Positions 1 to 25,665 of a DNA stretch of 64,000 nt are shown one piece after another. Source of the DNA: an uncultured Christensenella sp. (GTDB lineage Bacteria; Bacillota; Clostridia; Christensenellales; Borkfalkiaceae). Made by a program: the position numbers and the translations under genes. The notes under the pieces are model-generated. The model was not told the origin of the DNA. It did no database searches and worked only from the letters and a program-made list of their open reading frames with translations. How positions within the stretch are numbered: the first letter of the stretch is position 1; each line of letters begins with the position of its first letter. The stretch is taken from positions 192,112-256,111 of the forward strand of contig CAJTUK010000004.1 in assembly GCA_910579525.1 (NCBI GenBank). Reading direction: 5' to 3'.

Positions 1-140
1 AATTTTTAATCAAAATATATCTCCGCCCATATGATTACCTGATTTAACGCTAATTATTCAAAACGATAACTTTGTTGAGTACATTATAAAACCTAATTCC
101 TACAATGTCAATAGGAATTAGGTTCTTTTAAAAAATTAAA

Positions 141-1157
141 TTAACGAAGTCTTTCAAAAAAATGATTTTCGGCAAGTTCTTTTTCTATATCGTTTCCCGA
201 GCCCAAAGCGAGCAAAACCTTGGTGGTTGCCATTTCAAAACTTATATCGTATGCCGGTATGCAAGATTGCGCAAGCCCCAATGCACTACCGTAAGTCCGC
301 GCCTTGCTGTCAATTGTAGATATAACTACTTTTATGCCTAAATTTTTACAATAATTAAGAAAATTTTTGAAATTAACTTCTTTACCTGCGGTGCAAACCG
401 TCCCGCTGTGATACAGCTGAACCATAACGGCTTTAGGTTTTATTTCCGTAAAGCGGTAAAAATCAAAGTTTAAAAGTGCGTGCGCCTGAATCGTAACCAT
501 ATCCATGCACAACTTTTGAGACTTGCAAGGTTTACGTTTTTCATAAAGCTGCGCAATAGCGGGATTCAAAGGGTTTTCGTTATAAATGAATTTACCGTCA
601 AGCATCTCTCCGAAATGCACGCCCAGAATACTTTCGTATTCGCCACTGATCTGCGTTGCGGCAATAAGCCTGCTTGCAAGGTGAATTTTACAATTTTGTC
701 CGTAATTCTGAAAACTTACGAATACTCCGCCGTAATCCGCTTGATTAATAAAATCAACTGCTCCGGCAAAATTTTCCAAGCCTTTACTCCGTTCATCGTC
801 AAGCGGATAGAGCGCGGAAACGAAAACTACCGGTAATTCGATATCACAGAAAATTTGACTGAAAAGATTAGCCGTAAAACACAAAGTATCAGTGCCGTGA
901 GTTATTATAACGCCTTTATACCCGTTATTTTTAACCTTTCGCAGACAGCACGCCATAATTTCGAGATCAGAAGGCTGAATATTCTCACTCAAAATATTTA
1001 ACGGCCGATATTCGTCAAATTCAGTATCGTTACCAAAACGTCCACGGTATAATTCAAGCAAAAAACTCTTTTCTTCGTTTCGCAAATCAACCGTATCGCC
1101 ACAAACGCGCGAACCTATCGTTCCGCCCGTAAAAATAACGCAAATTCTGTTTTTCAT
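141..1157 (-). CDS. L-asparaginase family protein (type I-like)
   Basis: 338-aa ORF with the asparaginase/glutaminase signatures TGGTIGS (N-terminus) and ITHGTDTL. Lies immediately downstream of asnS. Confidence 0.75.
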   Translation of the reverse strand: MKNRICVIFTGGTIGSRVCGDTVDLRNEEKSFLLELYRGRFGNDTEFDEYRPLNILSENIQPSDLEIMACCLRKVKNNGYKGVIITHGTDTLCFTANLFSQIFCDIELPVVFVSALYPLDDERSKGLENFAGAVDFINQADYGGVFVSFQNYGQNCKIHLASRLIAATQISGEYESILGVHFGEMLDGKFIYNENPLNPAIAQLYEKRKPCKSQKLCMDMVTIQAHALLNFDFYRFTEIKPKAVMVQLYHSGTVCTAGKEVNFKNFLNYCKNLGIKVVISTIDSKARTYGSALGLAQSCIPAYDISFEMATTKVLLALGSGNDIEKELAENHFFERLR

Positions 1158-1170
1158 AAGTTTTTAAAAA

Positions 1171-2547
1171 TCAAAGACTGCCCACCGTTCTGGGATAAAG
1201 CAATGTATCGCGTATATTCTGAACTCCTGTTATATACATGAGAATTCTCTCGAATCCCAAACCGAAACCGCTGTGCGGAACGCTTCCGAATTTTCTTGTA
1301 TCAAGGTAAGAATTATAAGCGTCAAGCGGCATATTCCGTTTTTGCATTGCATTTTTAAGTTTTTCAAGGTCCGCTTCTCTTTCGCTGCAACCTATAATTT
1401 CACCGATTCCCGGCACAAGCAAATCTGTCGCGGCGACGGTCTTGCCGTCGGGATTTTGCTTCATATAAAACGCTTTTATATCGGCGGGATAGTCGGTTAC
1501 AAACACGGGTTTTTTAAAGTGCTCTTCGGTCAGATACCTCTCATGCTCCGTTTGCAAATCGCAACCCCACTCTACTGGGAACTTAAATTCTTTACCGGAT
1601 TTTTTGAGAATCTCAACCGCGTCGGAGTATTTAAGTTTAACGAAATCGCTTGAAATCACCGCATTAAGTTTTTCAATAAGCCCTTTTTCTGATCGCTCGT
1701 TAAAAAATGTGAGTTCCTCGGGGCAATTCTCTATTACGTCGCGTATAATCGATTTAATAAAATCTTCGGCTATTTCAATTATATCTTGTAAGTCGCAAAA
1801 ACACACTTCGGGTTCTATTTGCCAGAATTCGGCCGCATGCCTTGTAGTATTGCTGTGCTCCGCACGGAAAGTAGGTCCGAACGTATAAATTTTACCTAAT
1901 CCCATAGCGGCGATTTCGCCTTCTAACTGCCCCGACACCGTAAGTCCGGCCTTTGCTCCGAAAAAGTCGTTAGAAAAATATTCCGCTTCGGTTTTTTCTT
2001 TTGCATTCCAAGGTTGCGTGGTCACACGAAACATTTCTCCAGCGCCCTCGCAGTCGCTGCCCGTTATTATAGGAGTATGAACGTATTTGTAACCGTGACT
2101 GTGAAAATACTTGTGTATTGCAAATGAAAGCTCGTTTCTCACTGCAAAAACAGCCTCAAAAAAACGCGTACGCGGTCTCAAATGCGGAATTGTACGCAAA
2201 AATTCAAGTGTGTGATGCTTTTTTTGCAAAGGATAATCTTGAGGACATTCACCCAAAACAATTACATTTTTAACACTAATTTCGAAACCGTTCCGCTCTG
2301 AAGGAACAAAAATTCCCTCTGCCTTTATTGCCGTTCCCGTGGCGAAAGCCGGTTTCAACAGACTTTCGGCTACGACCCCTTTTTCAATTACAAGCTGTAA
2401 ATTTTTAAGACAAGTTCCGTCATTCAATTCTATGAAAGCTATCCCCTTCGAATCACGCCATGTTCTCACCCATCCGCAGACCGTAACGCTTTTATCTTTG
2501 TAAACTTCGGAATTCAAAAACAGTTCTCTTATGTCCGTATGTTTCAT
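1171..2547 (-). CDS. asnS: Asparagine--tRNA ligase
   Basis: 458-aa ORF. Class IIb aaRS motifs FRAEHSNTTRHAAEFWQIEPE and GFGLGFERILMY, with an N-terminal OB-type anticodon-binding region. The pattern fits AsnRS better than AspRS. Confidence 0.9.
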   Translation of the reverse strand: MKHTDIRELFLNSEVYKDKSVTVCGWVRTWRDSKGIAFIELNDGTCLKNLQLVIEKGVVAESLLKPAFATGTAIKAEGIFVPSERNGFEISVKNVIVLGECPQDYPLQKKHHTLEFLRTIPHLRPRTRFFEAVFAVRNELSFAIHKYFHSHGYKYVHTPIITGSDCEGAGEMFRVTTQPWNAKEKTEAEYFSNDFFGAKAGLTVSGQLEGEIAAMGLGKIYTFGPTFRAEHSNTTRHAAEFWQIEPEVCFCDLQDIIEIAEDFIKSIIRDVIENCPEELTFFNERSEKGLIEKLNAVISSDFVKLKYSDAVEILKKSGKEFKFPVEWGCDLQTEHERYLTEEHFKKPVFVTDYPADIKAFYMKQNPDGKTVAATDLLVPGIGEIIGCSEREADLEKLKNAMQKRNMPLDAYNSYLDTRKFGSVPHSGFGLGFERILMYITGVQNIRDTLLYPRTVGSL

Positions 2548-2564
2548 ATTTACCTCTTTAAATG

Positions 2565-2594
2565 CAAAAATACGGACCGCCGTAAGGCAGTCCG
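2565..2594 (-). terminator. Rho-independent terminator after rpmF
   Basis: On the minus-strand RNA: 9-bp stem CGGACUGCC/GGCGGUCCG (one G-U), UUAC loop, then UAUUUUUG, a few nt after the rpmF stop. Confidence 0.6.
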
Positions 2595-2602
2595 CAGATT
2601 TG

Positions 2603-2794
2603 TTAATTTGCTTTCTTTTCGTCCTTGGACACTACTTCGACTTTATCGTAGTAGCCGCAATTCCCGCAAACTTTATGAGCCTCTTTCAATTCATGACAAT
2701 GAGGACATTCAACGAGCGTAGGAGCCGTTGCCTTGTAGTTTGCAAACCTTTTATTAGTTCTGCTTTTGGACTGTTTGCCCTTGGGTACTGCCAT
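2603..2794 (-). CDS. rpmF: 50S ribosomal protein L32
   Basis: 63-aa ORF starting MAVPKGKQSKSRTNKR, with zinc-ribbon cysteines CPHC...CGNCG. Conserved DUF177-rpmF gene pair. Confidence 0.95.
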   Translation of the reverse strand: MAVPKGKQSKSRTNKRFANYKATAPTLVECPHCHELKEAHKVCGNCGYYDKVEVVSKDEKKAN

Positions 2795-2816
2795 CTTTTA
2801 CACCTCTTTTTATAAT

Positions 2817-3221
2817 TTATTTAGGTACGTCAATACCCGTGCAGTCTTCTTTACATAGTAAAACGCTGGGCTGACTTATAAGTATTGCATCATCCACGGC
2901 GGTTTTAAGATTAATTCTTATGCCGTCGTAAAAATAATTATCGCCGTCATGCTCGGGAACAAAAAGTATATCCGACGTGAATTCGGTAAGCTTTTGAGCA
3001 TCTTTTAAGCAATAAGAGCAGTGTCCCGAAATTCTGTAACTTACCGTGAGTCTTACCCCCACGCAATCGTCATCATAAATTTCGTATTCACCCGAAACCT
3101 TAACCGCACCCGAAATCTCACTCAACGGCACCAAACAAAGATTATTTTCAGGCAAATATTCAAACTGAAAGTTCCCCGTGTATTTTTTTAGCGCGTTAAG
3201 CTTTTTTACTTCAATTTCCAT
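2817..3221 (-). CDS. YceD/DUF177 family protein
   Basis: 134-aa acidic ORF directly upstream of rpmF, the classic DUF177-rpmF arrangement. C-terminal Cys residues typical of the family. Confidence 0.75.
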   Translation of the reverse strand: MEIEVKKLNALKKYTGNFQFEYLPENNLCLVPLSEISGAVKVSGEYEIYDDDCVGVRLTVSYRISGHCSYCLKDAQKLTEFTSDILFVPEHDGDNYFYDGIRINLKTAVDDAILISQPSVLLCKEDCTGIDVPK

Positions 3222-3239
3222 AATGTAGCTGACCTTAAG

Positions 3240-3269
3240 ATTATAATATAGTTAAAAAACCTTTGTCAA
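3240..3269 (-). promoter_or_regulatory. Sigma-70-type promoter for the DUF177-rpmF operon
   Basis: Minus strand reads TTGACA, 18-nt spacer, TATAAT, ending about 20 nt upstream of the DUF177 start codon. Confidence 0.5.
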
Positions 3270-3296
3270 CTCATTTTTACGGCGCAAAAATAAATT

Positions 3297-4493
3297 TTAT
3301 AAAAGTTCAGCCGTTTCCCTGGCGATAACGAGTTCTTCATTCGTCGGAATTACTAAAACTTTAACTTTGGAATTGTTTTTGGAAATCTCGCGAATATTCC
3401 CGTCGTTTTTAGCTTTATTCGCCCGTGAATTGAACTTAACGCCAATGAATTCGAGCCCTTTGCACACATTTTCACGCACATAAGGCGTATTTTCACCTAT
3501 TCCGGCGGTAAACACAATACAGTCAAGTCCGCCCATAGCCGCAGCGTAGGCGCCAACGAATTTTTTAACCTGATAAGAGAACATATCCAGCGCAAGAACG
3601 CATCTTTCATTCCCTTTCTTCATTCCCGATTCGAGATCTCTGAAATCGCTCGAAACTCCCGAGATTCCGGCAACACCGCACTTTTTATTGAGATATGTAA
3701 CAGTGTCGGCGTGAGAAAGCCCTTTTTTCCTTGCAAGGAATTCAACCGCAGAGGCGTCTATGTCGCCTGAACGCGTTCCCATAAGCACGCCGGCAAGCGG
3801 AGTAAATCCCATAGAGGTATCAACGCACTTGCCGCCGTCCACAGCGGAAATAGAAGAGCCGTTGCCAAGATGGCATGTTACTATTTTCAAATCTTCGGGA
3901 TTTTTTCCAAGGTATTTTGCCGCTTCGGCAGATACAAACTTATGACTGGTACCATGTGCGCCGTATTTTCTTACTCCGAATTCCTTATAATCGTTATAAT
4001 CTATACCGTAAAGGTACGCCTTGGGAGGCATAGTTGCATGGAACGAAGAATCAAACACGAGCGCCATGGGCGTACCGGGCATAACTTCCATACATGCCCT
4101 TAATCCGGTGGCTGCCGCAGGATTGTGCAAAGGAGCAAGTTCAAACGTCTTTTCTTCAAGAGTTTTGAGGACTTCGGGCGTGACAAGCGTGGTCTTTTTA
4201 AAATATTCACCGCTCGCAACTATTCTGTGTCCCACAGCGTCTATTTCTTTCATTGACTTAATAACGCCGATTTCTTCGTCCAAAAGCGCGTCAAGTACCA
4301 GTTTTATAGCTTCTTTATGGTCGGGCATGCTCTGTTTATAAATTTTCTCGCCGCCGTTCCCTTTAGCTTTTAATAGCGAACCGCGTATTCCTATGCGTTC
4401 GCATCCGCCCTTTGCCAATACTTTTTCAGTTTCCATATCAATAAGCTGATATTTGAGCGAAGAACTACCTGCGTTTACTACTAAAATTTTCAT
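3297..4493 (-). CDS. ackA: Acetate kinase
   Basis: 398-aa ORF. N-terminus MKILVVNAGSSSLKYQL, plus HRIVASGE, GAHGTSH and TCHLGNGSS motifs of acetate/propionate kinases. Confidence 0.95.
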   Translation of the reverse strand: MKILVVNAGSSSLKYQLIDMETEKVLAKGGCERIGIRGSLLKAKGNGGEKIYKQSMPDHKEAIKLVLDALLDEEIGVIKSMKEIDAVGHRIVASGEYFKKTTLVTPEVLKTLEEKTFELAPLHNPAAATGLRACMEVMPGTPMALVFDSSFHATMPPKAYLYGIDYNDYKEFGVRKYGAHGTSHKFVSAEAAKYLGKNPEDLKIVTCHLGNGSSISAVDGGKCVDTSMGFTPLAGVLMGTRSGDIDASAVEFLARKKGLSHADTVTYLNKKCGVAGISGVSSDFRDLESGMKKGNERCVLALDMFSYQVKKFVGAYAAAMGGLDCIVFTAGIGENTPYVRENVCKGLEFIGVKFNSRANKAKNDGNIREISKNNSKVKVLVIPTNEELVIARETAELL

Positions 4494-4512
4494 ATTTATT
4501 CTCCCTTAATTT

Positions 4513-5517
4513 TTATTCTGCCTGTAATGCGGTAACAGCAACGGTTGCCACGATATCTTCAACATTGCAACCGCGAGATAAATCGTTCAAAGGTTTTGCA
4601 AATCCCTGACAAATGGGACCTACCGCCATATACCCGCCAAAGCGTTGCGCTATTTTGTAACCGATGTTACCCGCGTTAATATTGGGGAAAACGAAAACGT
4701 TTGCATGCCCCGCAACTTTAGAACCGGGAGCTTTGAGTTGCCCGACTTCGGGAGCAACCGCCGCGTCAAACTGGAATTCGCCGTCAAGCGCGAGATTAGG
4801 AGCCGCCGCTTTTGCAAGAACCGTAGCTTGCTGAACTTTAGGAACTGTTTGCGTGAATTTATCGTCGTTTCCGCTACCTTTCGTCGAAAACGAAAGCATA
4901 GCGACTCTCGGTTCGATTCCTGCTATATCTTTTGCCGTTTTTGCCGAAGAAACGGCTATATCGGCGAGTTGTTCCGCGGTAGGTTCGATATTAATCGCGC
5001 AGTCGCCGAAAACGGCAACACCGTCAGGGTTATAAGGATTTGATTTGTCGGGAGCAATCATAATAAAACAACTCGAAACGGTTTTGATTCCTGGAGCGGT
5101 TTTAACAACTTGTAATCCGGGGCGCAGAGTGTTCGCCGTAGAATGGCACGCGCCCGAAACGTAGCCGTCCACATCGCCAGCTTTAAGCATAAGCGCACCG
5201 AACATCGTCCTGTCTTTAGCTTGTTCGCTTGCCTGCTCCTCCGTCATACCTTTAGACTTTCTGGCTTCGTAAAGTATTTTCGCATACTCCGCGGTTTTGG
5301 AAGAAGTAAGCGGATCCACAAGCGTCACTCCCGTCAAATCCACATCAGGCGCAACTTTTTTACATTCATTCTCGTTACCGATAAGCACGATTTTGGCAAT
5401 ACCTTCTTTAGTTATGCGCGCCGCAGCTTCCACCACGCGCTTGTCCTCCCCCTCGCAAAGAACTATAGTCTTTTTTCTGGCGGCGGCTTTCATTTTTATT
5501 TCTTCCAATAATGACAT
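4513..5517 (-). CDS. pta: Phosphate acetyltransferase
   Basis: 334-aa ORF with full-length similarity to short-form Pta (GDxxRVVEAA, SGAxHSTAxT, DCAINIxP, NIGYK motifs). Forms a pta-ackA operon. Confidence 0.93.
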   Translation of the reverse strand: MSLLEEIKMKAAARKKTIVLCEGEDKRVVEAAARITKEGIAKIVLIGNENECKKVAPDVDLTGVTLVDPLTSSKTAEYAKILYEARKSKGMTEEQASEQAKDRTMFGALMLKAGDVDGYVSGACHSTANTLRPGLQVVKTAPGIKTVSSCFIMIAPDKSNPYNPDGVAVFGDCAINIEPTAEQLADIAVSSAKTAKDIAGIEPRVAMLSFSTKGSGNDDKFTQTVPKVQQATVLAKAAAPNLALDGEFQFDAAVAPEVGQLKAPGSKVAGHANVFVFPNINAGNIGYKIAQRFGGYMAVGPICQGFAKPLNDLSRGCNVEDIVATVAVTALQAE

Positions 5518-5932: not shown

Positions 5933-6610
5933 ATGACATTGGCACTCATTGTGCTTGTGGTCTTCTTGATTGTGTGGTTCAACCAATCCGCAAAGATCAA
6001 GGGCAACAAACACACTCACAGGAAGCGCACCATCACAAATGTTCCGTTGCAAGATGAGCTTGGTGCAAAAAACTTCAAAAAAATAATTGACGACTTAAGC
6101 GCTCTGCCATCGTCTAATACGTTGTCTGGTGATAGCTTAATGGATGCAATCGAAAGCTTGTATCAAGAGTACGACCTGCCGGACAGACGCACACCAGAAC
6201 AGAGAACTACGGACAGGGCAAAGTATTTGGCGACTATCTCATCTGCAAGAGAGGATGAAGAATATCCTATGGATGACTCAAAACTCCCTCTTATTGATAG
6301 AATTTGGCATTACCCTTTTGATGCGCCGCTTATAGACCGCCCAGACCTTCTCGTTGGCATTCCAAACACAATCATTGAGGTTGACGGCATTAAATATAAA
6401 TATGACCACCGCGGCATTCCTACGAACTTGTATCAGTCGATACCCGCTAAGCTCGTCGGAGACTTAAAGGTTCTTCTTACAATGCGAGAACTTGACGCGG
6501 CTGGATACAAATATAGTTGGAACAGACAAGCAGCAAATTGGCAGCGCGCCGAAATAGCTGCTGAGCAATATAAAGAAACGAAGAAAAAATACCCGTGGCT
6601 TTATAGATAA
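5933..6610 (+). CDS. Membrane-anchored hypothetical protein (prophage-edge gene)
   Basis: 225-aa ORF with a good RBS. N-terminal hydrophobic helix TLALIVLVVFLIVWF followed by a basic stretch. No motif recognised. Confidence 0.6.
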   Translation: MTLALIVLVVFLIVWFNQSAKIKGNKHTHRKRTITNVPLQDELGAKNFKKIIDDLSALPSSNTLSGDSLMDAIESLYQEYDLPDRRTPEQRTTDRAKYLATISSAREDEEYPMDDSKLPLIDRIWHYPFDAPLIDRPDLLVGIPNTIIEVDGIKYKYDHRGIPTNLYQSIPAKLVGDLKVLLTMRELDAAGYKYSWNRQAANWQRAEIAAEQYKETKKKYPWLYR

Positions 6611-6611
6611 A

Positions 6612-6803
6612 TCAATCGCAGTGTTTAGGGTTGCATCCCATCGCAACCCTCATTGCGTCGGTCATTATCTTCCACTCATCTTCGCTAATCAGAATAGCCT
6701 TGCCTGAGTTGGTTTGTATTGCATAGAAATTTTCTCCCATCGACGCATTATTGATAAAGTCGTCGGCGCGGTCAAGGAACTCATTCAATTTTAACTCTTT
6801 CAT
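6612..6803 (-). CDS. Small Phd/YefM-antitoxin-like protein (possible regulator)
   Basis: 63 aa counted from the ATG at 6803, which has a GAGGTG SD. The ORF-track start at 6815 has no SD. The sequence ...NSGKAILISEDEWKIMTDAMRV resembles the Phd/YefM strand-helix core. Has its own promoter. Confidence 0.45.
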   Translation of the reverse strand: MKELKLNEFLDRADDFINNASMGENFYAIQTNSGKAILISEDEWKIMTDAMRVAMGCNPKHCD

Positions 6804-6831
6804 ATGGCACCTCATTGGAAATTATATATAC

Positions 6832-6860
6832 ATTATATAATAAGTGAGCGCCAAAGGCAA
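6832..6860 (-). promoter_or_regulatory. Sigma-70-type promoter for the 63-aa gene
   Basis: Minus strand reads TTGCCT, 17-nt spacer, TATAAT. Divergent from the early promoter at 6943. Confidence 0.5.
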
Positions 6861-6942
6861 GACAAAAGCAGCCGTATTAGAAAATGTAATTGAAAACGGC
6901 AAAAATGTAAAAAAAATTTTTAAGAAAATCGTCAAAAATCTC

Positions 6943-6971
6943 TTGACATTTTCTTTTTACTATGCTATTAT
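6943..6971 (+). promoter_or_regulatory. Early rightward sigma-70-type promoter (extended -10)
   Basis: TTGACA (6943-6948), 17-nt spacer, TGcTATTAT (-10 at 6966-6971). Confidence 0.6.
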
Positions 6972-6989
6972 AAAACATATTTAGACACA
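6966..6989 (+). promoter_or_regulatory. Conserved element copy A (TATTATAAAACATATTTAGACACA)
   Basis: Exact 24-mer also present at 10102-10125. Contains the core ACATATTTAGACAC shared by four sites. Confidence 0.6.
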
Positions 6990-7039
6990 TAATAGGATAA
7001 GTGCCGCCATTTTACAGATGCGGCTTACTTAATAAATAA

Positions 7040-7060
7040 TATACGACATATTTAGACACA
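7040..7060 (+). promoter_or_regulatory. Conserved element copy B (TATACGACATATTTAGACACA)
   Basis: The 20-mer TATACGACATATTTAGACAC is identical to the minus-strand copy at 61614-61633. Ends 12 nt before the ATG at 7073. Confidence 0.6.
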
Positions 7061-7072
7061 ACGGAGAGAACT

Positions 7073-7159
7073 ATGATTTACTTTATGTTAGGTCTTATGT
7101 GTGGGGCTTTGCTTGCCCTACTATACATAGATGGCGATCAAAGACCGCCAAGATATTAA
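7073..7159 (+). CDS. Small hydrophobic peptide (28 aa)
   Basis: ATG at 7073 preceded by a GGAGAG SD. Sequence MIYFMLGLMCGALLALLYIDGDQRPPRY. A better gene model than the 7099-7311 track ORF, which has no SD. Confidence 0.4.
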   Translation: MIYFMLGLMCGALLALLYIDGDQRPPRY

Positions 7160-7173
7160 ATACGGAGGGAACT

Positions 7174-7311
7174 ATGTTAACCACTTGCATCATCATTGCT
7201 GCTTGGACAACAGGTATGCCACTTTGGGCATCAATCACCATGACGGTAATTGCCAGCATACGATTTGTATTCAAATGTATCGGCACGGGCATTAAGCTAA
7301 GCGACAATTAA
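7174..7311 (+). CDS. Small hydrophobic protein (45 aa)
   Basis: ATG at 7174 preceded by a GGAGGGA SD. Sequence MLTTCIIIAAWTTGMPLWASITMTVIASIRFVF..., predicted to have two TM segments. Confidence 0.45.
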   Translation: MLTTCIIIAAWTTGMPLWASITMTVIASIRFVFKCIGTGIKLSDN

Positions 7312-7348
7312 ATTTGAATAAAACTGATATTTTATTGAGGTAAAAAAT

Positions 7349-7603
7349 ATGGACAAAAAGTTAACTTGCCCATTTTGTGGCAAAGAAGCAAGAATTGTAG
7401 TCTGTGACGACGAAGGCAACATTCATCCAGACGAGTACGAAGACGATCCTTGGAGCGGTTTAGGCTATATGTTAGTCCACGAAGAACAAGACGACGTGAA
7501 ATGTCCCATTGCCACAGAGCCAGACGAGCCGTTAGGTCGTTTAATTTATGACTCTCGTGAGGAAGCCGCTGCTATGTGGGACACAAGGGTTCCAACACCA
7601 TAA
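7349..7603 (+). CDS. Lar-family restriction-alleviation-like zinc-ribbon protein
   Basis: 84 aa. N-terminal CPFCG knuckle, a second KCP element, and a C-terminal SREEAAAMWDTR resembling the Lar-family xEAIxAWNRR tail. Confidence 0.5.
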   Translation: MDKKLTCPFCGKEARIVVCDDEGNIHPDEYEDDPWSGLGYMLVHEEQDDVKCPIATEPDEPLGRLIYDSREEAAAMWDTRVPTP

Positions 7604-7622
7604 AGAGCGAGGTACACAATCA

Positions 7623-8057
7623 ATGGATAAACAGGAATTATTAAATAAAAAGTCCGAGCTTGAAAAAGAACTTAGCCAGATCAACAAAGAACTGTGGGAT
7701 TACGACGTCAAACAGCTCGCAGAACAATATAAAGATAAATTCTCTTGTGAGTTCTGCCGCTACAATGCAGTACGCGGGTTCTCTGGTGACGGATGGCACA
7801 ATATGTGCTGCGCTGATAACTGCACTTGTTGCCACAGTTACTGCGACAAGTACAAACCAGATAACGCAGCGACACTTAAAATCAAACAATCTGGCAAGCA
7901 AGACGCTTTATTAAGACCGAAGAGCACGAACGGCTACGGTCAAATCGGCGAAGACGACAAGGACGCACTCGAAGAGCTTGGAGCAAGAATATTTGCCGAT
8001 GAGCCAACAGGGTACACAATGAAAATGCTTGACTTATATTTGGAGAGCTGTAAATGA
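7623..8057 (+). CDS. Hypothetical coiled-coil / Cys-rich protein
   Basis: Taken from the in-frame ATG at 7623, because the track start at 7548 overlaps the previous gene. Cys cluster CEFCRY...CCADNCTCCHSYC. Confidence 0.5.
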   Translation: MDKQELLNKKSELEKELSQINKELWDYDVKQLAEQYKDKFSCEFCRYNAVRGFSGDGWHNMCCADNCTCCHSYCDKYKPDNAATLKIKQSGKQDALLRPKSTNGYGQIGEDDKDALEELGARIFADEPTGYTMKMLDLYLESCK

Positions 8058-8590
8058 GCAACACACTCGTAGTTAACCTCTTCGGTGTTCCGGGGGCTGG
8101 CAAAAGCACTGGCGCCGCATACATCTTTTCCTGCATCAAAATGGCAGGAGTTAATGCAGAACTCATTACTGAGTATGCAAAAGACAAAGTTTGGGAACGG
8201 AACGATGAAGCGTTCCGCAACCAAGCATACATATTTGGAGAACAATCTTATAGGATAAGCCGCTGTGCTGGTAAGGTAGATGTTATCGTAACCGACAGTC
8301 CCCTTCCTTTAAGTGTAATGTATAACAACGATGAACGACTTACGGAAAACTTTAACAAAGCAGTAATGGACGTATTCAACACCTACGACAATCTTAACTA
8401 CCTCCTGCTGAGAGTTAAGCCGTACAATCCCGTTGGGCGTAAGCAGACTGAGGCTGAGTCTGACGCGCTTGGCGCATCGGTAATCTCACTGCTCAAAGAT
8501 AGAAACATCCCCTACCATTCCATCGATGGCGATGTTAAAGGGTACGATGAGATCGTTCGAGAAATTATTTCAAGAGTAAACGGAGAGTAA
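8054..8590 (+). CDS. P-loop NTPase / kinase-like protein
   Basis: 178 aa. Walker A GVPGAGKST near the N-terminus, and a Walker-B-like VIVTDSP. Translationally coupled (ATGA overlap) to the upstream gene and placed directly before the Thg1-like gene. Confidence 0.65.
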   Translation: MSNTLVVNLFGVPGAGKSTGAAYIFSCIKMAGVNAELITEYAKDKVWERNDEAFRNQAYIFGEQSYRISRCAGKVDVIVTDSPLPLSVMYNNDERLTENFNKAVMDVFNTYDNLNYLLLRVKPYNPVGRKQTEAESDALGASVISLLKDRNIPYHSIDGDVKGYDEIVREIISRVNGE

Positions 8591-8596
8591 AATTAT

Positions 8597-9445
8597 ATGG
8601 AGAACAATTCGCTTGGCGACAGAATGAAAGAGTATGAAAATATATCAAGAATATATTTGACTAAGCGTAGCCCTGTTATCATTCGTATCGATGGCAAAGC
8701 ATTCCACAGCTTTACAAAAGGGTTCATTCGCCCTTTTGATAAAATGCTTATGGAAACTATGGCTGAAACGGCGAAGTTCCTCGCCGAAAACATTTCTGGA
8801 TGCAAGCTTGCATATACACAGTCGGACGAAATCAGCCTACTTCTCACGGATTATGACACAATTAAGACGCAACCGTGGTTCGAGAACAATCTTCAGAAAC
8901 TTGTAAGTATTGCGGCAAGTATGGCAACCTTGCAGTTCAACAGAATATTCACTACCAAGGTTGGCGACATTAAACGCACGAAACATCACCTTGTTTTTAA
9001 GGACGTCAACGAAGAGAGTGATGAAAGCAGCATAAAGGATCTTACGAGATATTGTGATTCTCTTTCAAAATCACAACAGGCAGGAGCAATGTTCGATGCA
9101 AGAGCTTTTATACTACCAAAGGAAGAAGTTGTTAACTACTTTATATGGCGTCAGCAAGATGCAACGCGCAATTCAATTCTTATGGTTGCTCAATCGTGTT
9201 TTTCCCACAAAGAAATGCAAGGGATTAAGTGCGACGCCCTGCAAGAAAAGTTATTTAGCGAACGTAACATCAACTGGAACGATTACACAATACCTCAAAA
9301 GCGCGGTACTTGTATTAGAAGACAAACAACTTTAAGAAATGATGTAGAGCGTCACGAATGGATTATCGACACTAATATACCGATATTCACACAAGATAAA
9401 GATTATATAAATAAACTTGTATTTGGAGAACAGACAAATGAATGA
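8597..9445 (+). CDS. tRNA-His guanylyltransferase (Thg1)-like protein, 3'-5' nucleotidyltransferase
   Basis: 282 aa. Thg1-family pattern GDRMKEYE, RIDGKAFHSFTKGF, PFD, AYTQSDEISLLL. Confidence 0.8.
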   Translation: MENNSLGDRMKEYENISRIYLTKRSPVIIRIDGKAFHSFTKGFIRPFDKMLMETMAETAKFLAENISGCKLAYTQSDEISLLLTDYDTIKTQPWFENNLQKLVSIAASMATLQFNRIFTTKVGDIKRTKHHLVFKDVNEESDESSIKDLTRYCDSLSKSQQAGAMFDARAFILPKEEVVNYFIWRQQDATRNSILMVAQSCFSHKEMQGIKCDALQEKLFSERNINWNDYTIPQKRGTCIRRQTTLRNDVERHEWIIDTNIPIFTQDKDYINKLVFGEQTNE

Positions 9446-9857
9446 CATCACAGAATTTAGAGGAAACAACTACTACCTCAGTAACTTCTACGAAAGAGAT
9501 GTGAGCTGCTTTGGTTTTACATTTAAGAATAACGAGGCGGCGTTTCATGCAATGAAGTGCCCTGAAAGAGCAAGCGAATTTTGCGACCTTGACCCATCAG
9601 CGGCAAAGAGACTTGGACGACAAGTTAAGCTCCGCCCAGATTGGGAGCAAGTCAAAGAAGACATCATGTACGAGGTATGTCGAGCAAAGTTTATGCAGCA
9701 TTCAGACTTAAAAGAGCAACTCCTCTCCACCGGTTCCGTACAACTCGTTGAGGGTAACGACTGGAACGACAGAGAATGGGGCGTGTGCAACGGAGAGGGC
9801 AAGAACAAGCTTGGCAAAATATTGATGAGAATCAGAGGAGAACTTGCAAATGCGTAG
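9438..9857 (+). CDS. NADAR (YbiA/DUF1768) family protein
   Basis: Taken from the ATG at 9438 (GGAGAA SD). FRGNNYYLSNFY, NNEAAFHAMK and DREWGV resemble the NADAR signature. Confidence 0.75.
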   Translation: MNDITEFRGNNYYLSNFYERDVSCFGFTFKNNEAAFHAMKCPERASEFCDLDPSAAKRLGRQVKLRPDWEQVKEDIMYEVCRAKFMQHSDLKEQLLSTGSVQLVEGNDWNDREWGVCNGEGKNKLGKILMRIRGELANA

Positions 9858-10080
9858 TACGAAAAAAGTAACCGCAAAAGACGCTGGCTGGGATCCGCGG
9901 CTGGATAGCTTCAATACTTCATTGAAGCGCTCAGCGCGGCGGCAACTCAACCATAAACTCAGACAACGGCAGAAGCGCGAACTCCGTAATATGTCGGAAG
10001 TTTGTGTTTGTTGCGGTGCTCCACTCGGTGACGCTGAACTCGGAACAATGATGTGCAGCGAGTGTAGCAAAGAACAATAA
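9850..10080 (+). CDS. Small basic zinc-ribbon protein
   Basis: ATG at 9850. Arg/Lys-rich N-terminal half and a C-terminal CVCCG...CSEC. Confidence 0.45.
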   Translation: MRSTKKVTAKDAGWDPRLDSFNTSLKRSARRQLNHKLRQRQKRELRNMSEVCVCCGAPLGDAELGTMMCSECSKEQ

Positions 10081-10101
10081 CTTCTACATCTTTATTTTTT
10101 A

Positions 10102-10125
10102 TATTATAAAACATATTTAGACACA
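10102..10125 (+). promoter_or_regulatory. Conserved element copy C (TATTATAAAACATATTTAGACACA)
   Basis: Exact copy of 6966-6989. Ends 9 nt before the ATG at 10135. No recognisable -35 upstream. Confidence 0.6.
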
Positions 10126-10134
10126 CGGAGACAT

Positions 10135-10707
10135 ATGACAAACAAAGAAACATTCCTATCTATTTGCAGAGAAGACATTAAGCGCGACGGCATTGAAGAC
10201 CTCTTAAAGTGGCTTGAAGACAGCGACTTCTTCGCTGCACCGGCAAGTACAAGATTCCACGGAAACTATGAAGGCGGCTTGTGCGAACACTCGCTGAACG
10301 TACATCGAGAACTCACACGCTTAAACGACATCTACCAGCTTGGTTACTCAAAAGAGACCATTGCGGTCACCGCCCTCTTCCATGATCTCTGCAAGGTTAA
10401 CTACTATAAGCGCGGAACACGGAACGTCAAAGACGAAAACGGTAACTGGGTTGTCAAAGAAGTCTATGAAGTTGACGAAAGAGTTCCACTCGGGCACGGC
10501 GAAAAGAGCTGCATCATTTTGCAGTGGTACATAAAGCTTTCGCTTGAAGAATTGCTCGCTATACGCTGGCATATGGGCGGTTTTGACTCCGCCACTAAGG
10601 GCGGCGATTACAGCCTGAGCAAGGCTCAGGACAACTCAAAGCTCGTAACACTCATCAGTGTTGCGGACTTGATAGCGTCAAATCTTTTCGAGGAGACTAA
10701 AAAATAA
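10135..10707 (+). CDS. HD-domain phosphohydrolase
   Basis: 190 aa. STRFHGNYEGGLCEHSLNV and ALFHDLCK give the H...HD metal-binding pattern (YhaM-like HD). Confidence 0.75.
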   Translation: MTNKETFLSICREDIKRDGIEDLLKWLEDSDFFAAPASTRFHGNYEGGLCEHSLNVHRELTRLNDIYQLGYSKETIAVTALFHDLCKVNYYKRGTRNVKDENGNWVVKEVYEVDERVPLGHGEKSCIILQWYIKLSLEELLAIRWHMGGFDSATKGGDYSLSKAQDNSKLVTLISVADLIASNLFEETKK

Positions 10708-11012
10708 TGCCGCCCGATTTACATAGATTTACCCCAACCGGTGCTCGAATATATGTACGCTCCGAAGATGGCAGACAAGTTGAACTTAATCTTGCTCACG
10801 TCCAAGAGATACATTTTGACCGCGGCGCCGACCACGATTATATGGCAAATGCCTTTAGGTATTTTGACGCAGCAGCTGAGCAAGTCGGTATCACGCTAAA
10901 GGGCTTACAGCTTGCCGTAAAACTCTCTACACCGGATGGCGAAGAGAAAGACGTATCCTACGAAGATTGGGAGCGCATGATACTGAACGGCATCCATAAC
11001 GAAGACAAATAA
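10707..11012 (+). CDS. Hypothetical protein
   Basis: 101-aa ORF, start coupled to the HD gene stop. No motif recognised. Confidence 0.5.
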   Translation: MPPDLHRFTPTGARIYVRSEDGRQVELNLAHVQEIHFDRGADHDYMANAFRYFDAAAEQVGITLKGLQLAVKLSTPDGEEKDVSYEDWERMILNGIHNEDK

Positions 11013-11027: not shown

Positions 11028-11777
11028 ATGCCAGATACAGAAAAGTTAAACATTCACCAAAAGATTTTGAAGATTGCCGACGCTGCCGGGGTTCTTCAAA
11101 AGACCAAGTCGGGCTACAACTACAAGTACGTGCCCGAAGAAGAGATTCAGGCGAAAGTAACTGCTTGTATGCAAAAGTATGGAGTTATGCTCTACCACTC
11201 CATCGTTCAAGGCACGCTTCGTGTTCAACCTTATACATACGAAAAATACGACGCGAAACTCAAAGCAAACAAGACAGTCAACGAGTTCGTCGTCACCGCC
11301 GACTCTGTGTACAAATGGGTCAACGCCGAGACCCCCGGCGAGTACATCGAAGTACCTTGGGCTCTCGTAGGGCAAATGGAAGACGCATCTCAAGCGTTCG
11401 GCGCGGCAGAAACATACTGCAACAGATACTTCCTTATGAAGTCGTTACAGCTTGCAACATCCGAAGCAGACCCCGACGAGTACAGAAGCAAACAAAAGGA
11501 AGCCGAAGGTTATGATCAAGAAAAAGAGCAAAAGGCTGCGGCGGAAGAACTTGCAAAAGCCGTTAAGGAAATCTTAGACAAGGGCTCCGAGCTCATCAAA
11601 AAAGGTTTCGCAAAAGAAGAAGTTATGGCAGTTGTAGGAAAATACAACAACGGCAACTCCAACCCTTCGAGCATCAAGTCGATTGAGATTTGCGCGGCGG
11701 TTATGGCAGAATTTGCGGAGCTCGAAAAGTCAAAAGCAAGCAAAAAGTCAACCACACCAAAAGGAGAAACGAAATGA
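11028..11777 (+). CDS. ERF-family single-strand annealing protein
   Basis: 249 aa. NIHQKILKI...KSGYNYKYVPEEEI...FGAAETYCNRYFLMK...SEADPDE matches the ERF layout. Sits before SSB and a nuclease. Confidence 0.7.
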   Translation: MPDTEKLNIHQKILKIADAAGVLQKTKSGYNYKYVPEEEIQAKVTACMQKYGVMLYHSIVQGTLRVQPYTYEKYDAKLKANKTVNEFVVTADSVYKWVNAETPGEYIEVPWALVGQMEDASQAFGAAETYCNRYFLMKSLQLATSEADPDEYRSKQKEAEGYDQEKEQKAAAEELAKAVKEILDKGSELIKKGFAKEEVMAVVGKYNNGNSNPSSIKSIEICAAVMAEFAELEKSKASKKSTTPKGETK

Positions 11778-12172
11778 TTTTTAACGACAACAAAATCTAC
11801 GCAAAAGTATGGAAAGTAACGCCGTCCGAGAACGGCAAGTACGTTGACCTTCAAATTACCACATCGGAAAAGGACAATGACGGCAACTACGTAAACTCAT
11901 CGTGGTTCCCTCGCGTTATCGGCAAAGCGGTTAACACCTTGAAAGGTTTGAAGCGCGAAGACCGCATCATCATTACGAAGTCGAAGTTCACCAACGAACG
12001 CAGAGACACCGACGACGGCAAGAAGTCCTTCTTCCGCTTCCTCATCCTCGAAGCAGAAATCGAAGGCAGCGAAAGGTCAGGCGGCAACACTCCCGCGACG
12101 GAAACCAATAAGAAGAATAAGCCGAAAGAGGAACCTGCTCCTGCGGCGGCTGAGGACGCTTGTCCTTGGTAA
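11774..12172 (+). CDS. Single-stranded DNA-binding protein (OB-fold)
   Basis: Taken from the ATG at 11774 (ATGA overlap with erf). About 100 aa of OB-like core, a Pro/Ala/Lys linker, and an acidic-aromatic tail AAEDACPW. Confidence 0.55.
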   Translation: MIFNDNKIYAKVWKVTPSENGKYVDLQITTSEKDNDGNYVNSSWFPRVIGKAVNTLKGLKREDRIIITKSKFTNERRDTDDGKKSFFRFLILEAEIEGSERSGGNTPATETNKKNKPKEEPAPAAAEDACPW

Positions 12173-12915
12173 GCGGAGAGCCAAGAAAGGAACGGTATAG
12201 TTTTTCTAAGTTATCAGCATTCCACACCTGCAAGTACGGGTACAAGATGACATACATAGACCATAAGAAAGGCATCGGAAATTGCTTCAGTTCTTATGGT
12301 CTTGAAGTTCACTCCATTATGGAGAGATACGCAAAGGGCGAACTTACCCTTTGGGATTTGGTAGGCATATATGAGTGGGAATTTGACGCGGCGGTGCCCG
12401 AAAAGTTCCCTTCTACCAAGTACTGCAAAGATATGCGAAAGCTCTACTACGATCAAGGGCTTGAGTACCTGAAAAACTTTGCAGGATACGATGACAGAAA
12501 AATATTAGAAGTTGAATCACAGTTCGATTACGAAATTGACGACTGGACTTTTAACGGCGTAATCGACTTAGTTTTTGAAGACAAAGACGGAAAGCTTATT
12601 ATACAAGACTATAAATCCAAGAGTTCTTTCAAGAACAAGCGCGAACAAGCGGAATATGCACGACAGCTTTATCTGTACGCATTATTTGTGAAGAAAAAAT
12701 ACGGTAGATATCCAGATATCCTTCGCTTTATGATGTTCAGAAAAAATATGTCGATTGACATACCGTTCGACGAGTCCAGCTTAAACGAAGCTTTAAGTTG
12801 GGCAAGAGAGACGGTGAAAGAAATCCGTGAGTGTTGGGATTTCACACCGACGTGTGACGAGTTCTTTAGCGAGAACTTGTGCAATCATCGCGAGTATTGC
12901 GAAAGCAAAATATAG
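12160..12915 (+). CDS. PD-(D/E)XK nuclease, Cas4/RecB-like with Cys cluster
   Basis: 251 aa. N-terminal YSFSKLSAFHTC, a core GVIDLVFED...IQDYKS (D...D/ExK), and a C-terminal CWDFTPTCDEFFSENLCNHREYC (4-Cys Fe-S type). The TTG start at 12160 is uncertain. Confidence 0.7.
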   Translation: MSLVSGEPRKERYSFSKLSAFHTCKYGYKMTYIDHKKGIGNCFSSYGLEVHSIMERYAKGELTLWDLVGIYEWEFDAAVPEKFPSTKYCKDMRKLYYDQGLEYLKNFAGYDDRKILEVESQFDYEIDDWTFNGVIDLVFEDKDGKLIIQDYKSKSSFKNKREQAEYARQLYLYALFVKKKYGRYPDILRFMMFRKNMSIDIPFDESSLNEALSWARETVKEIRECWDFTPTCDEFFSENLCNHREYCESKI

Positions 12916-19123: not shown

Positions 19124-19858
19124 ATGAGGTATATCGCAAGTTGCAGCTGTGGCAAGGATAGTCTTGCTATGGTCTACAAAATTATAGAACAACAACTCCC
19201 ACTCGACGAAATCGTCTTCTACGATACGAATATGGAGTTTCAGTCAATCTACTATAACTGGGAACAGTTAACGAAATATGCGCAAGAGCGCGGAATTAAA
19301 TGCACTACTCTTCGCCCCAAGTGTCCGTTCTTATATACGATGTTTGAGCAGCCACACAAGTCTCGCAAGGACGGGATTGTAAGATACGGATATGCTTGGT
19401 GCGGCGGACGTTGCCGCTGGGGTACGAGTGAAAAGCTGAAAGCAATTGACAAGTATTGTGAACAGGAAGAAACGATTTGCTATGTTGGCATAGCCGCCGA
19501 CGAAACGCTGAGACTTCAAAAGGAACGTAAGGAATACAAGCGCTTCCCACTCGCGGATTGGAATATGAGCGAAGCCGACTGCTTGCAATATTGTCAATCA
19601 CACAATATCAAATGGATTGAGAAATGCCACGACGGATACATAGACCTTTACTCAATCCTCGACCGAGTTTCTTGCTGGTGTTGTGCAAACAAAAATCAGT
19701 GGGAACTCTACAACTACTGGAAGTACCTGCCAGAATATTGGGACAAGTTGAAAGAGCTTCAAAGCAAGATATCGCGCCCCTTTAATAGGTACACAATCTT
19801 TGAATTGGAAGAGCGTTTTGAAAAAGGCTACATACCAGTTCACCGCATCAAAAAATAA
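19124..19858 (+). CDS. PP-loop ATP pyrophosphatase (PAPS reductase-like) family protein, paralogue 2
   Basis: 244 aa. The N-terminus MRYIASCSCGKDSLAM is nearly identical to residues 16-30 of paralogue 1. C-terminal SCWCCANK. Confidence 0.7.
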   Translation: MRYIASCSCGKDSLAMVYKIIEQQLPLDEIVFYDTNMEFQSIYYNWEQLTKYAQERGIKCTTLRPKCPFLYTMFEQPHKSRKDGIVRYGYAWCGGRCRWGTSEKLKAIDKYCEQEETICYVGIAADETLRLQKERKEYKRFPLADWNMSEADCLQYCQSHNIKWIEKCHDGYIDLYSILDRVSCWCCANKNQWELYNYWKYLPEYWDKLKELQSKISRPFNRYTIFELEERFEKGYIPVHRIKK

Positions 19859-19869
19859 GGAGATACATA

Positions 19870-20121
19870 ATGAAATCATTTCGCCTAAGCATTACAAGAG
19901 ATGGCAAGTTGTCAATCGCTTGTCCGGAGTGTGGCTCTACAAAGGTGGAAGTTACAAACTACCCTGCGAACGAGGTTGACAAGATAAAGTGCCGCCACTG
20001 CGGTCACACCCTCTACAGACCATTCCCTCAACCTAAGGGTTACCACCAAGTTACGATAGACGAACTTGATAAAGAAGACGACGAGGAACACAATGAAATT
20101 CGAGAACACACAGGTATTTAA
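19870..20121 (+). CDS. Small zinc-ribbon protein
   Basis: 83 aa. CPECG...CRHCG, with an acidic C-terminus. Confidence 0.5.
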   Translation: MKSFRLSITRDGKLSIACPECGSTKVEVTNYPANEVDKIKCRHCGHTLYRPFPQPKGYHQVTIDELDKEDDEEHNEIREHTGI

Positions 20122-20791: not shown

Positions 20792-20803
20792 GGAGAATAC
20801 ATA

Positions 20804-24084: not shown

Positions 24085-24091
24085 GGTACGT

Positions 24092-24592: not shown

Positions 24593-24598
24593 TACATA

Positions 24599-25191: not shown

Positions 25192-25665
25192 ATGATACAA
25201 ATATTAGACGAGAGAACAATGAGACAGTTAATTATAGCAAGAAAAGATTTGAATATGTCAGCTGGGAAATTGGCGGCGCAATGCTGCCATGCCTCTATGG
25301 CATTTTTAACTAAACCACTTAGAGACCAATCAAGAATAATTAAATCAACTGCCACGGGGAATAAAACATTTTCTATAACTTTACCATCAAGTATTTGTGA
25401 TGAATGGATTTGTGGTATATTCACAAAAACTATCTGCGCGGCAAAGAATTATAACCATCTTATGAAGGCTATCACAATGGCTCGTGAGCTTGGTCTGGTT
25501 GAAGGCAAGGATTTCTTTCTTATCAAAGATAATTGTCTTACTGAACTCAAGCCAGAAGAAATTGATGAGAACGGCGTCGGCAGAACTCTTACTTGCATCG
25601 GTTTCCGCCCACTCGAAGATGACATCGCTCATTTAATAAGCAAAAAATTTCAGCTTTATAAATAA
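25192..25665 (+). CDS. PTH2-family peptidyl-tRNA hydrolase
   Basis: 157 aa. ARKDLNMSAGKLAAQCCHASMAF, IKDNCLTELKPEE and TCIGFRP match the archaeal/eukaryotic-type Pth2 pattern. Confidence 0.75.
   Translation: MIQILDERTMRQLIIARKDLNMSAGKLAAQCCHASMAFLTKPLRDQSRIIKSTATGNKTFSITLPSSICDEWICGIFTKTICAAKNYNHLMKAITMARELGLVEGKDFFLIKDNCLTELKPEEIDENGVGRTLTCIGFRPLEDDIAHLISKKFQLYK

Follow-up and report, generated by a model that had tools for sequence, protein, structure and literature searches.

The five-gene cluster

Positions 8054-10707 of a 64,000-nucleotide stretch of DNA from an uncultured Christensenella sp. (contig CAJTUK010000004.1 of assembly GCA_910579525.1, positions 192,112 to 256,111 of the forward strand; the whole stretch is called the window here) hold five tightly packed plus-strand open reading frames (ORFs). 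They encode a P-loop protein, a Thg1-like protein (TLP), a NADAR-domain protein, a small basic protein with four cysteines (the Cys4 protein) and an HD-domain protein, and they belong to the early region of a prophage. It had been proposed from the sequence that the P-loop protein, the TLP and the HD protein together form a toolkit for the repair of tRNA 5' ends. The comparative analysis does not support such an integrated module, of which only a probable tRNA 5'-repair role of the TLP survives. On balance, the interval from 7.3 to 10.1 kb appears to be a mosaic, variable accessory island in front of a conserved recombination and replication backbone, with genes that were separately acquired and act independently. 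All five genes of the original prediction were recovered at the same coordinates by ORF, Pfam and PHROG analysis (sizes in amino acids, aa):

8054..8590, plus strand: P-loop kinase-like protein, 178 aa; Walker A GVPGAGKST; AAA_28; PHROG 2107
8597..9445, plus strand: TLP, 282 aa, templated 3'-5' RNA polymerase family; Pfam Thg1; PHROG 4717
9438..9857, plus strand: NADAR-domain protein, 139 aa; Pfam PF08719; TIGR02464
9850..10080, plus strand: basic protein with CxxC...CxxC, 76 aa, putative zinc ribbon, recognized from its sequence only
10135..10707, plus strand: HD-domain protein, 190 aa; Pfam HD; PHROG 28876

The same gene set was present in independent gene calls on eight other contigs with an identical TLP. 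The translational link postulated between the P-loop and TLP genes holds as far as close spacing is concerned, with 6 nucleotides between stop and start, but the two genes do not overlap. Overlaps of 8 nucleotides were found at the TLP/NADAR and NADAR/Cys4 gene boundaries.

The Thg1-like protein

The TLP is a bona fide member of its family that looks catalytically intact. Pfam Thg1 (PF04446) recognizes its N-terminal palm domain with E 5.2e-31 and 107.7 bits, above the cut-off of 29.2, and the protein matches PHROG 4717, 'tRNA-His guanylyltransferase', with an E value of 2.9e-96. The C-terminal Pfam domain Thg1C scores only 19.6 bits (cut-off 26.3), yet residues 164-276 align with residues 126-238 of the Bacillus thuringiensis enzyme BtTLP at 122 bits. 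The match to BtTLP (PDB 4KGK; E 7.5e-80) consists of two blocks with about 50% identity over both domains. All 62 aligned sequences share residues D32, D77, E78, R30 and E14, which correspond to D30, D75, E76, R28 and E12 of BtTLP, the first three of which are its catalytic carboxylates and the last two its nucleoside triphosphate-binding residues (PMC3701042). The predicted Thg1-like identity is thus confirmed, with all catalytic carboxylates kept. While the catalytic and nucleotide-site residues are all shared with BtTLP (4KGK/4KGM), three differences are apparent. The window TLP has an inserted variable loop (residues 125-163, 39 aa here and 3 to 39 aa across the family), the activation lysine K43 of BtTLP is replaced by Arg45 (phage TLPs have Lys and Arg at this site in a ratio of 31 to 29), and the gene is located in a prophage early operon rather than on the chromosome beside an AAA_33 kinase.

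BtTLP, the closest characterized relative, repairs 5'-truncated tRNAs of any identity and prefers truncated tRNAs over -1 addition (PMC3061083), which agrees with the premise that bacterial TLPs perform this kind of repair. It also activates 5'-monophosphate ends itself using ATP or GTP (PMC3061083, PMC6471195), so that a kinase is unneeded for that step and would be needed only for 5'-OH ends. The window TLP would most likely use templated 3'-5' addition to rebuild acceptor stems of host tRNAs that have lost 5' nucleotides, activating 5'-monophosphate ends unaided with ATP or GTP.

The exact TLP protein was found on 525 contigs and in more than 1000 assembly blocks, and 164 GenBank phage records have an annotated TLP homologue with 40-52% identity. 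The window TLP belongs to the same family as the PHROG 4717 genes of Bacillus Herelleviridae, Lak, Caulobacter and jumbo phages, but its prophage, a temperate one of medium size from a gut bacterium, lacks tRNA genes, and the TLP gene is polymorphic for presence and absence between close relatives.

Presence and absence of the TLP gene in related phages

The six closest viral contigs (L086-L091) have the gene order Lar, P-loop, NADAR, Cys4 protein, HD and ERF (a single-strand annealing protein), with a Cys-rich ORF ahead of the P-loop gene in some of them, and all six lack the TLP gene. Their identity to the window proteins is 95-96% for the P-loop protein, 96-99% for the HD protein and 88-91% for the NADAR protein. 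In the DNA alignment the TLP gene is missing with base precision, and GGAGA/ATG motifs mark the junctions. Conversely, the nearest TLPs (61-68% identity; L002, L125-L130) are encoded upstream of HD and ERF genes in the absence of the P-loop gene, with a NADAR gene in one case (L126). The P-loop/TLP/HD linkage on which the repair toolkit depends is therefore not maintained among relatives of this phage.

The guanine plus cytosine (GC) content of the TLP gene is 39% (39% at third codon positions, GC3), compared with 45-50% (GC3 47-56%) for its neighbours, which fits an acquired cassette. The low GC content and the homology between the junction in the relatives and the left junction of the window, which extends up to the ATG, tentatively favour gain of the gene by the window type over its deletion in the relatives. 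More distant relatives also have TLP genes in this island, which shows it to be a long-standing site for them. The TLP gene would be a stand-alone cassette that was horizontally acquired.

A different arrangement was observed in three further contigs (L205-L207), where NADAR, a 92-aa ORF, TLP and three small ORFs are followed by YqeY, DUF488, Metallophos, a 118-aa ORF, HD, two small ORFs and ERF; in L206 and L207 the Metallophos gene and the 118-aa ORF form one 287-aa call. The YqeY, DUF488 and Metallophos phosphoesterase genes occupy an island between TLP and HD at 2312-4014 of these contigs, and YqeY and Metallophos genes recur near other TLPs. As RNA-end-processing partners of a TLP, the YqeY and Metallophos proteins are more plausible than the P-loop or HD protein of the window.

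The P-loop protein

The P-loop protein is probably a nucleotide or nucleoside kinase and not a polynucleotide kinase, judging from family profiles and a predicted structure. Single-sequence phmmer searches of the PDB returned only noise or weak matches for both the P-loop and the HD protein, and profiles and predicted structures were therefore needed. Among Pfam families only AAA_28 was matched (E 3.9e-9; 37.4 bits, cut-off 27), and PHROG 2107 carries the family label 'thymidylate kinase'. The AlphaFold2 model (predicted local distance difference score, pLDDT, 83.5) gave thymidylate kinases as all of the top 50 Foldseek matches in the PDB, with E values of about 4e-7 and template modelling (TM) scores of 0.6-0.69; in a viral structure library the model matched dTMP kinases, deoxynucleoside kinases and NadR-type proteins. 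When the family profile was compared with the PDB, the best real match was deoxyguanosine kinase (E 0.011) and no polynucleotide kinase was matched. The proposed role as a kinase that activates tRNA 5' ends is not borne out by these similarities, nor would it be required by an enzyme that, like BtTLP, activates its own substrate.

Thymidylate and deoxynucleoside kinases are defined by the arginine of a DR(Y/H) or ERS motif after strand 3. The P-loop protein shares with them, and with NadR-type AAA_28 proteins, the fold with its lid, the Walker A motif and the Arg/Lys-rich character of the lid, but it lacks this arginine. In its place stands T80-D81-S82-P83 (V-T-D81-S82-P83), which is invariant in the P-loop family.

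Like nucleotide-metabolism kinases, the family has genomic ties to dUTPase, NrdD and dCMP deaminase. A homologue with 72% identity, present on 853 contigs, ends an operon of DNMK, NADAR, NrdD, dUTPase and AAA_28 genes. The P-loop gene is located beside dUTPase and NrdD genes in L123 and L092 and overlaps the dUTPase gene in L123, L124 and L092, and in Erwinia phages it is found between dCMP deaminase and NrdD. Two kinds of fusion were also identified. In a Dysosmobacter segnis prophage (L134:528-1532), a family member with 54% identity is fused to dUTPase in a protein of 334 aa. In the relatives that lack the TLP gene (L087:6001-6960, also L086 and L088-L091) and in P0002, the P-loop and NADAR proteins form one in-frame ORF of 319 aa, with two linker variants, GEQIM and GEKVM, both in frame. 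The latter fusion hints, as a Rosetta-stone sign, that the P-loop and NADAR proteins work together. The P-loop protein would thus be a nucleotide enzyme resembling thymidylate and deoxynucleoside kinases, with functional ties to dUTPase, NrdD and NADAR and not to the TLP.

Many P-loop homologues, such as P0033, P0051 and P0111 with about 253-281 aa, end in an additional Cys-rich segment of about 75 aa, which the window protein lacks. In L123 an RVT_1 reverse transcriptase gene (6440-7666, minus strand, 408 aa) lies just 3' of the AAA_28 gene and near a gene with a Gp10_C domain, and may represent a diversity-generating retroelement.

The HD protein and the conserved backbone

The His/Asp metal ligands of an HD catalytic domain are conserved in the HD protein. 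It matches Pfam HD (E 7.3e-6, 26.7 bits against a cut-off of 22) and PHROG 28876 (E 9e-49), and residues H42, H52, H83, D84, H121, H146 and D178 are invariant in 34 homologues. A profile of these homologues matched only YhaM in the PDB (E 0.0015), and YhaM (9H3F) was likewise the only convincing Foldseek match of the AlphaFold2 model (pLDDT 92; E 4e-3, probability 1.0, TM 0.56). The alignment is limited to the HD region of YhaM (about residues 120-200). The phage protein and YhaM of B. subtilis and S. aureus have the PAS..H...GGL.EH and HD motifs in common, but the similarity is weak (E about 1e-3), the N-terminal OB fold is absent and the phage gene is tied to ERF recombination genes. With 190 aa and no OB fold, the HD protein is best described as YhaM-like and not as an orthologue. 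YhaM is a 3'-5' exoribonuclease and also a 3'-deoxyribonuclease acting on single-stranded DNA, used in recombination during transformation (PMC12107432).

The succession of HD and ERF genes is conserved in L002, L086-L091, L125-L130 and L205-L210, regardless of whether a TLP gene is present. In L210 the HD gene opens the operon without any island and is followed by ERF, a PD-(D/E)XK nuclease, a primase-helicase and Pol III alpha. The recurrence of this series, also where the island is missing, indicates that it constitutes a conserved backbone and that the genes upstream of it form a variable island. From the lack of an OB fold and the constant tie to ERF and PD-(D/E)XK we infer that the HD protein acts in DNA-end processing for recombination or replication; the RNA end-healing once ascribed to it does not fit this pattern. 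It would be a YhaM-like metal-dependent 3' exonuclease serving the ERF recombination module.

The NADAR and Cys4 proteins

The NADAR protein matches PF08719 (E 2.2e-26, 93.5 bits against 35.1) and TIGR02464 (76.7 bits against 73.7), and by these domain matches is a probable ADP-ribosyl or N-glycoside hydrolase. NADARs reverse guanine ADP-ribosylation on DNA and RNA and do not act on phosphate ends (PMC11543638, PMC11833690). Phage members of the family (AdfN) overcome DarTG1 (PMC11257639), and the domain is very common in larger phages (PMC9503650). The window protein would most likely strip ADP-ribose from guanine in nucleic acids or cleave a related N-glycoside. The Cys4 protein had zero matches to Pfam, PHROG and TIGRFAM-type profiles; it is kept with 83-90% identity in L086-L091 and 56% in L002.

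Neighbours of TLP and P-loop genes in phages and bacteria

The conservation of a P-loop partner beside phage TLPs, which the original prediction had named as a check, was assessed in a census of gene neighbourhoods. Searches with the window proteins by tblastn could miss divergent P-loop partners, and Pfam scans of the neighbours at positions ±1 and ±2 were added, with the same outcome. The families found were as follows:

TLP loci in IMG/VR (60 non-redundant), 118 immediate neighbours: AAA_28 1 (L024); HAD_SAK_2 3; RlaP 3; DSPc 3; PTH2 1
The same 60 loci, neighbours within ±2: NADAR 3; YqeY 3; RNA_ligase 2; cREC 2; gp30.3 (AdfN) 1
TLP loci in bacterial and archaeal genomes (about 76), 150 immediate neighbours: AAA_33 24; Metallophos 4; RlaP 2; RNA_ligase 2; RtcB 1; PNKP_ligase 1; AAA_28 0
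P-loop loci in phages (22 non-redundant): NrdD 3; dUTPase 2; NUDIX 2; cytidylyltransferase-like 2; DHFR 1; NAD synthase 1; RlaP 1; CCA-adding enzyme 1

An AAA_28 neighbour was thus found once in about 136 non-redundant TLP loci, viral and genomic together (one of 60 and none of about 76), and none of the 22 non-redundant loci centred on the P-loop gene had a TLP gene within about 6 kb. In four GenBank phages (those of Caulobacter and Erwinia and the Lak phage, which appear in both match lists, and Clostridium FA67, which appears in the P-loop list only) the P-loop and TLP genes are more than 4-5 kb apart, and this wide spacing suggests that their co-occurrence in large phages reflects large gene inventories.

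The kinases that do accompany bacterial TLPs are of another kind. Operons of TLP and kinase genes, some with a Macro domain or an RNA ligase, were recognized in 2010 by Anantharaman, Iyer & Aravind, who predicted a role in RNA repair (PMC2904730). In our census the TLP-linked bacterial kinases make up a compact AAA_33 family, about 145 aa long and encoded 3' of the TLP gene (24 of the 150 neighbours), and the AAA_33 profile matches mammalian PNKP (E 5e-16), CthPnk and T4 Pnk. The window likewise has a TLP beside a P-loop protein and an ADP-ribose-processing domain, here NADAR and not Macro. However, its P-loop protein belongs to AAA_28, is encoded 5' of the TLP, is not a conserved partner and is unrelated to the bacterial kinases beyond Walker A: hhalign of the P-loop family with 21 TLP-linked AAA_33 kinases gave a probability of 12.5%, confined to the Walker A region.

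The census ORFs were defined by a simple longest-ORF heuristic and the census was confined to the 80 closest loci per collection. Several observations weigh against the view that the island genes are independent. In one independent phage contig, L024, the AAA_28 and TLP genes overlap by 4 nucleotides, with a gene for the RNA-repair nucleotidyltransferase RlaP 3 kb upstream. In four prophage loci (L134, L137, L139, L167) the P-loop gene is located 2-4.5 kb upstream of the TLP gene, an arrangement that leaves room for a weak functional tie between the two. Three genes of an RNA-repair type, RlaP, CCA-adding enzyme and YqeY, each occur once among the neighbours of P-loop genes. Finally, NADAR genes occur within a few genes of TLPs more often than P-loop genes do, so that independence may not hold for every gene of the island.

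L024, a 212-kb contig, also carries a tRNA gene with anticodon CTA (7895-7971, plus strand; tRNA-Pyl or amber-suppressor-like according to ARAGORN) 1.1 kb 3' of the AAA_28-TLP pair, which may point to stop-codon recoding.

Prophage context and the probable early operon

The left end of the window (1-5517, minus strand) is bacterial chromosome with genes for asparaginase, Asp/Asn-tRNA synthetase, L32, YceD, acetate kinase and Pta, and the junction between chromosome and phage lies at about 5.5-5.9 kb; these bacterial genes indicate that the element is an integrated prophage. The flanks of the same phage genes vary among contigs, being either these bacterial genes, IleRS/TsaD/RF-1 or other phage genes, and the IleRS/TsaD/RF-1 flank in other assemblies implies that the phage integrates in at least two contexts. 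The closest named relatives occur in metagenome-assembled genomes of Clostridia. When the region was compared by megablast with 50,697 phage records, nothing matched, which indicates that this phage has no close cultured relative. Other features of the early region are listed below:

6860-6832, minus strand: divergent strong promoter-like site with good hexamers (consensus scan)
6943..6971, plus strand: promoter-like site, TTGACA, 17-nucleotide spacer, TATTAT, extended -10 TG (consensus scan only, 11/12 matches)
7349..7603, plus strand: Lar-like protein, 84 aa, possible restriction-alleviation factor; PHROG 599, E 1.2e-5
7623..8057, plus strand: Cys-rich protein, 144 aa, from a gene call; no Pfam or PHROG match
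10707..11012, plus strand: 101-aa protein downstream of HD (ORF and gene call)
11028..11777, plus strand: ERF-family single-strand annealing protein; Pfam ERF, E 4e-13; PHROG 155
12160..12915, plus strand: PD-(D/E)XK (Cas4/RecB-like) nuclease; Pfam PDDEXK_1, E 6e-20
25192..25665, plus strand: PTH2-type peptidyl-tRNA hydrolase; Pfam PTH2, E 1.3e-18

The site at 6943-6971 is a probable early rightward promoter by its consensus hexamers. No plus-strand terminator-like site was detected by scanning 7-12.8 kb; the sole such site in 7-13 kb is weak and lies inside the PD-(D/E)XK gene (12842-12857), the total count being no greater than expected by chance. The promoter-like site and the absence of terminator-like sites fit an early operon, and this label for the gene cluster is reasonable. 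A 67-aa ORF on the minus strand (6612-6815) is flanked by the divergent promoter-like sites, an arrangement that resembles a lysis-lysogeny switch region. The island, of which the Lar-like gene is the first (87-89% identity in L086-L091), would head the early rightward operon of a temperate phage, with the HD, ERF, PD-(D/E)XK, primase-helicase and Pol III alpha backbone behind it. A Lar-like gene at its start fits an anti-defence flavour of the island. The 144-aa Cys-rich ORF is kept in only some of the relatives (L089-L091).

Downstream of HD the gene order is 101-aa ORF, ERF, 132-aa ORF, PD-(D/E)XK nuclease (probably the exonuclease that works with ERF), primase-helicase and Pol III alpha. 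A primase fused to DnaB helicase and a Pol III alpha (PHP) replicase of 1071 aa are encoded by this temperate phage itself (13171-18110, plus strand). A deoxynucleotide block (19124-25084, plus strand) follows, with genes for a PAPS-reductase-like protein, DNMK, the 5'-deoxynucleotidase NT5C, NrdD, an NrdG-like activase and dUTPase; owing to the DNMK gene, the phage already has a deoxynucleoside monophosphate kinase besides the AAA_28 protein. The PTH2 gene closes the early block as a second tRNA-directed accessory gene on the same strand block, and a PTH2 gene also adjoins a TLP gene in one IMG/VR locus.

Possible roles of the TLP

It is possible, although only as a tentative reading, that the phage TLP is a stand-alone counter-defence enzyme that rebuilds the 5' strand of the tRNA acceptor stem after attack by an as-yet-undescribed host nuclease or toxin. 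The NADAR protein, by taking ADP-ribose off guanine in RNA, and PTH2 might join it in a dispersed translation-protecting kit. The original prediction had compared the cluster with T4 Pnk/Rnl1 acting against PrrC. The likeness is in logic only, namely a phage enzyme that could restore damaged host tRNA; the early-block ORFs scanned encode no RNA ligase and no polynucleotide kinase-phosphatase, there is no known cognate nuclease, and the chemistry of the TLP is templated 5' extension and not ligation.

It is unlikely that the TLP and NADAR proteins act jointly on damaged tRNA or other RNA, with NADAR removing ADP-ribose from guanine and the TLP restoring 5' nucleotides, as a phage analogue of the bacterial TLP-Macro operons (PMC2904730). 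The two genes overlap in the window, they are at most 5 kb apart in L003, L034, L035, L078, L126, L174, L183, L192 and L205-L207, NADAR or AdfN genes were among the ±2 neighbours of viral TLPs in the census, and NADARs are able to reverse guanosine ADP-ribosylation on RNA (PMC11833690). However, the closest relatives keep NADAR, fused to the P-loop protein, without the TLP, which shows NADAR to be independent of it, and NADAR is also found in deoxynucleotide operons that lack a TLP. Both genes are early ones, and NADAR abounds in larger phages (PMC9503650); their proximity may reflect shared ancestry or chance. Even so, this proximity is the one association within the island that is hard to dismiss.

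The dedicated repair or counter-defence module of the original prediction, in which the kinase would add phosphate to 5'-OH tRNA ends, lost 5' nucleotides would be filled in by the TLP and the healing of ends would fall to the HD protein, appears improbable. The tight packing of the genes in one operon, the overlapping AAA_28-TLP pair near RlaP in L024, the pairing of bacterial TLPs with a kinase (PMC2904730 and our census) and the presence of PTH2 in the same phage are in its favour. Against it, the closest relatives keep the P-loop, NADAR and HD genes without the TLP, while others have TLP and HD without the P-loop gene. The true bacterial partner is the PNKP-like AAA_33 kinase, whereas the window P-loop protein has no such match, resembles thymidylate kinases and is fused elsewhere to dUTPase or NADAR, and the HD gene tracks ERF and not TLP. 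In addition, the 20 early-block ORFs scanned, all outside the minus-strand structural block, gave no match to RNA_ligase, RtcB, Metallophos or a PNK family.

A neutral-passenger reading, in which the TLP gene was recently inserted by horizontal transfer and does nothing for the phage, is equally improbable. The presence/absence polymorphism among relatives and the GC content that sets it apart from its neighbours could be explained in this way, but all catalytic residues are intact, the identical protein recurs on 525 contigs from many samples, the gene overlaps and a GGAG resembling a ribosome-binding site are kept, and more distant relatives have TLPs (61-68% identity) in the same island. 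A role in the maturation of phage-encoded tRNAs, such as the addition of G-1 to a phage tRNA-His, is most improbable: many TLP phages are indeed large and tRNA-rich (Caulobacter, Lak and Bacillus phages), but tRNA scans found no tRNA gene in the 64-kb window or in the flanks of L115-L117, L120, L002, L125, L126 and L205, an Rfam scan of 5-27 kb gave nothing, and BtTLP-type enzymes favour truncated tRNAs over -1 addition (PMC3061083).

Implications

In 2021, phage Thg1 was already predicted to restore the 5' ends of tRNAs (PMC7824862). With regard to these earlier predictions, the window TLP is another case of the predicted phage TLP kind, the toolkit is not a new system and the locus adds little. 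No phage TLP seems to have been characterized so far: a literature search returned no experimental study of one, and the original prediction was likewise not aware of a characterized phage pathway for tRNA 5'-end repair. To our knowledge, there is also no host system that truncates the 5' ends of tRNAs. A proven phage enzyme for 5'-end tRNA repair would, on both these grounds, point to a new class of tRNA-targeting immunity. The present locus offers a handle on this question, as the prophage is very common in the gut and its close relatives differ by exactly the TLP gene, which makes the counter-defence reading directly testable. The fusions of AAA_28 proteins to NADAR or dUTPase, and the presence of NADAR in deoxynucleotide operons, may be of greater service to research on NADAR and on phage nucleotide metabolism.

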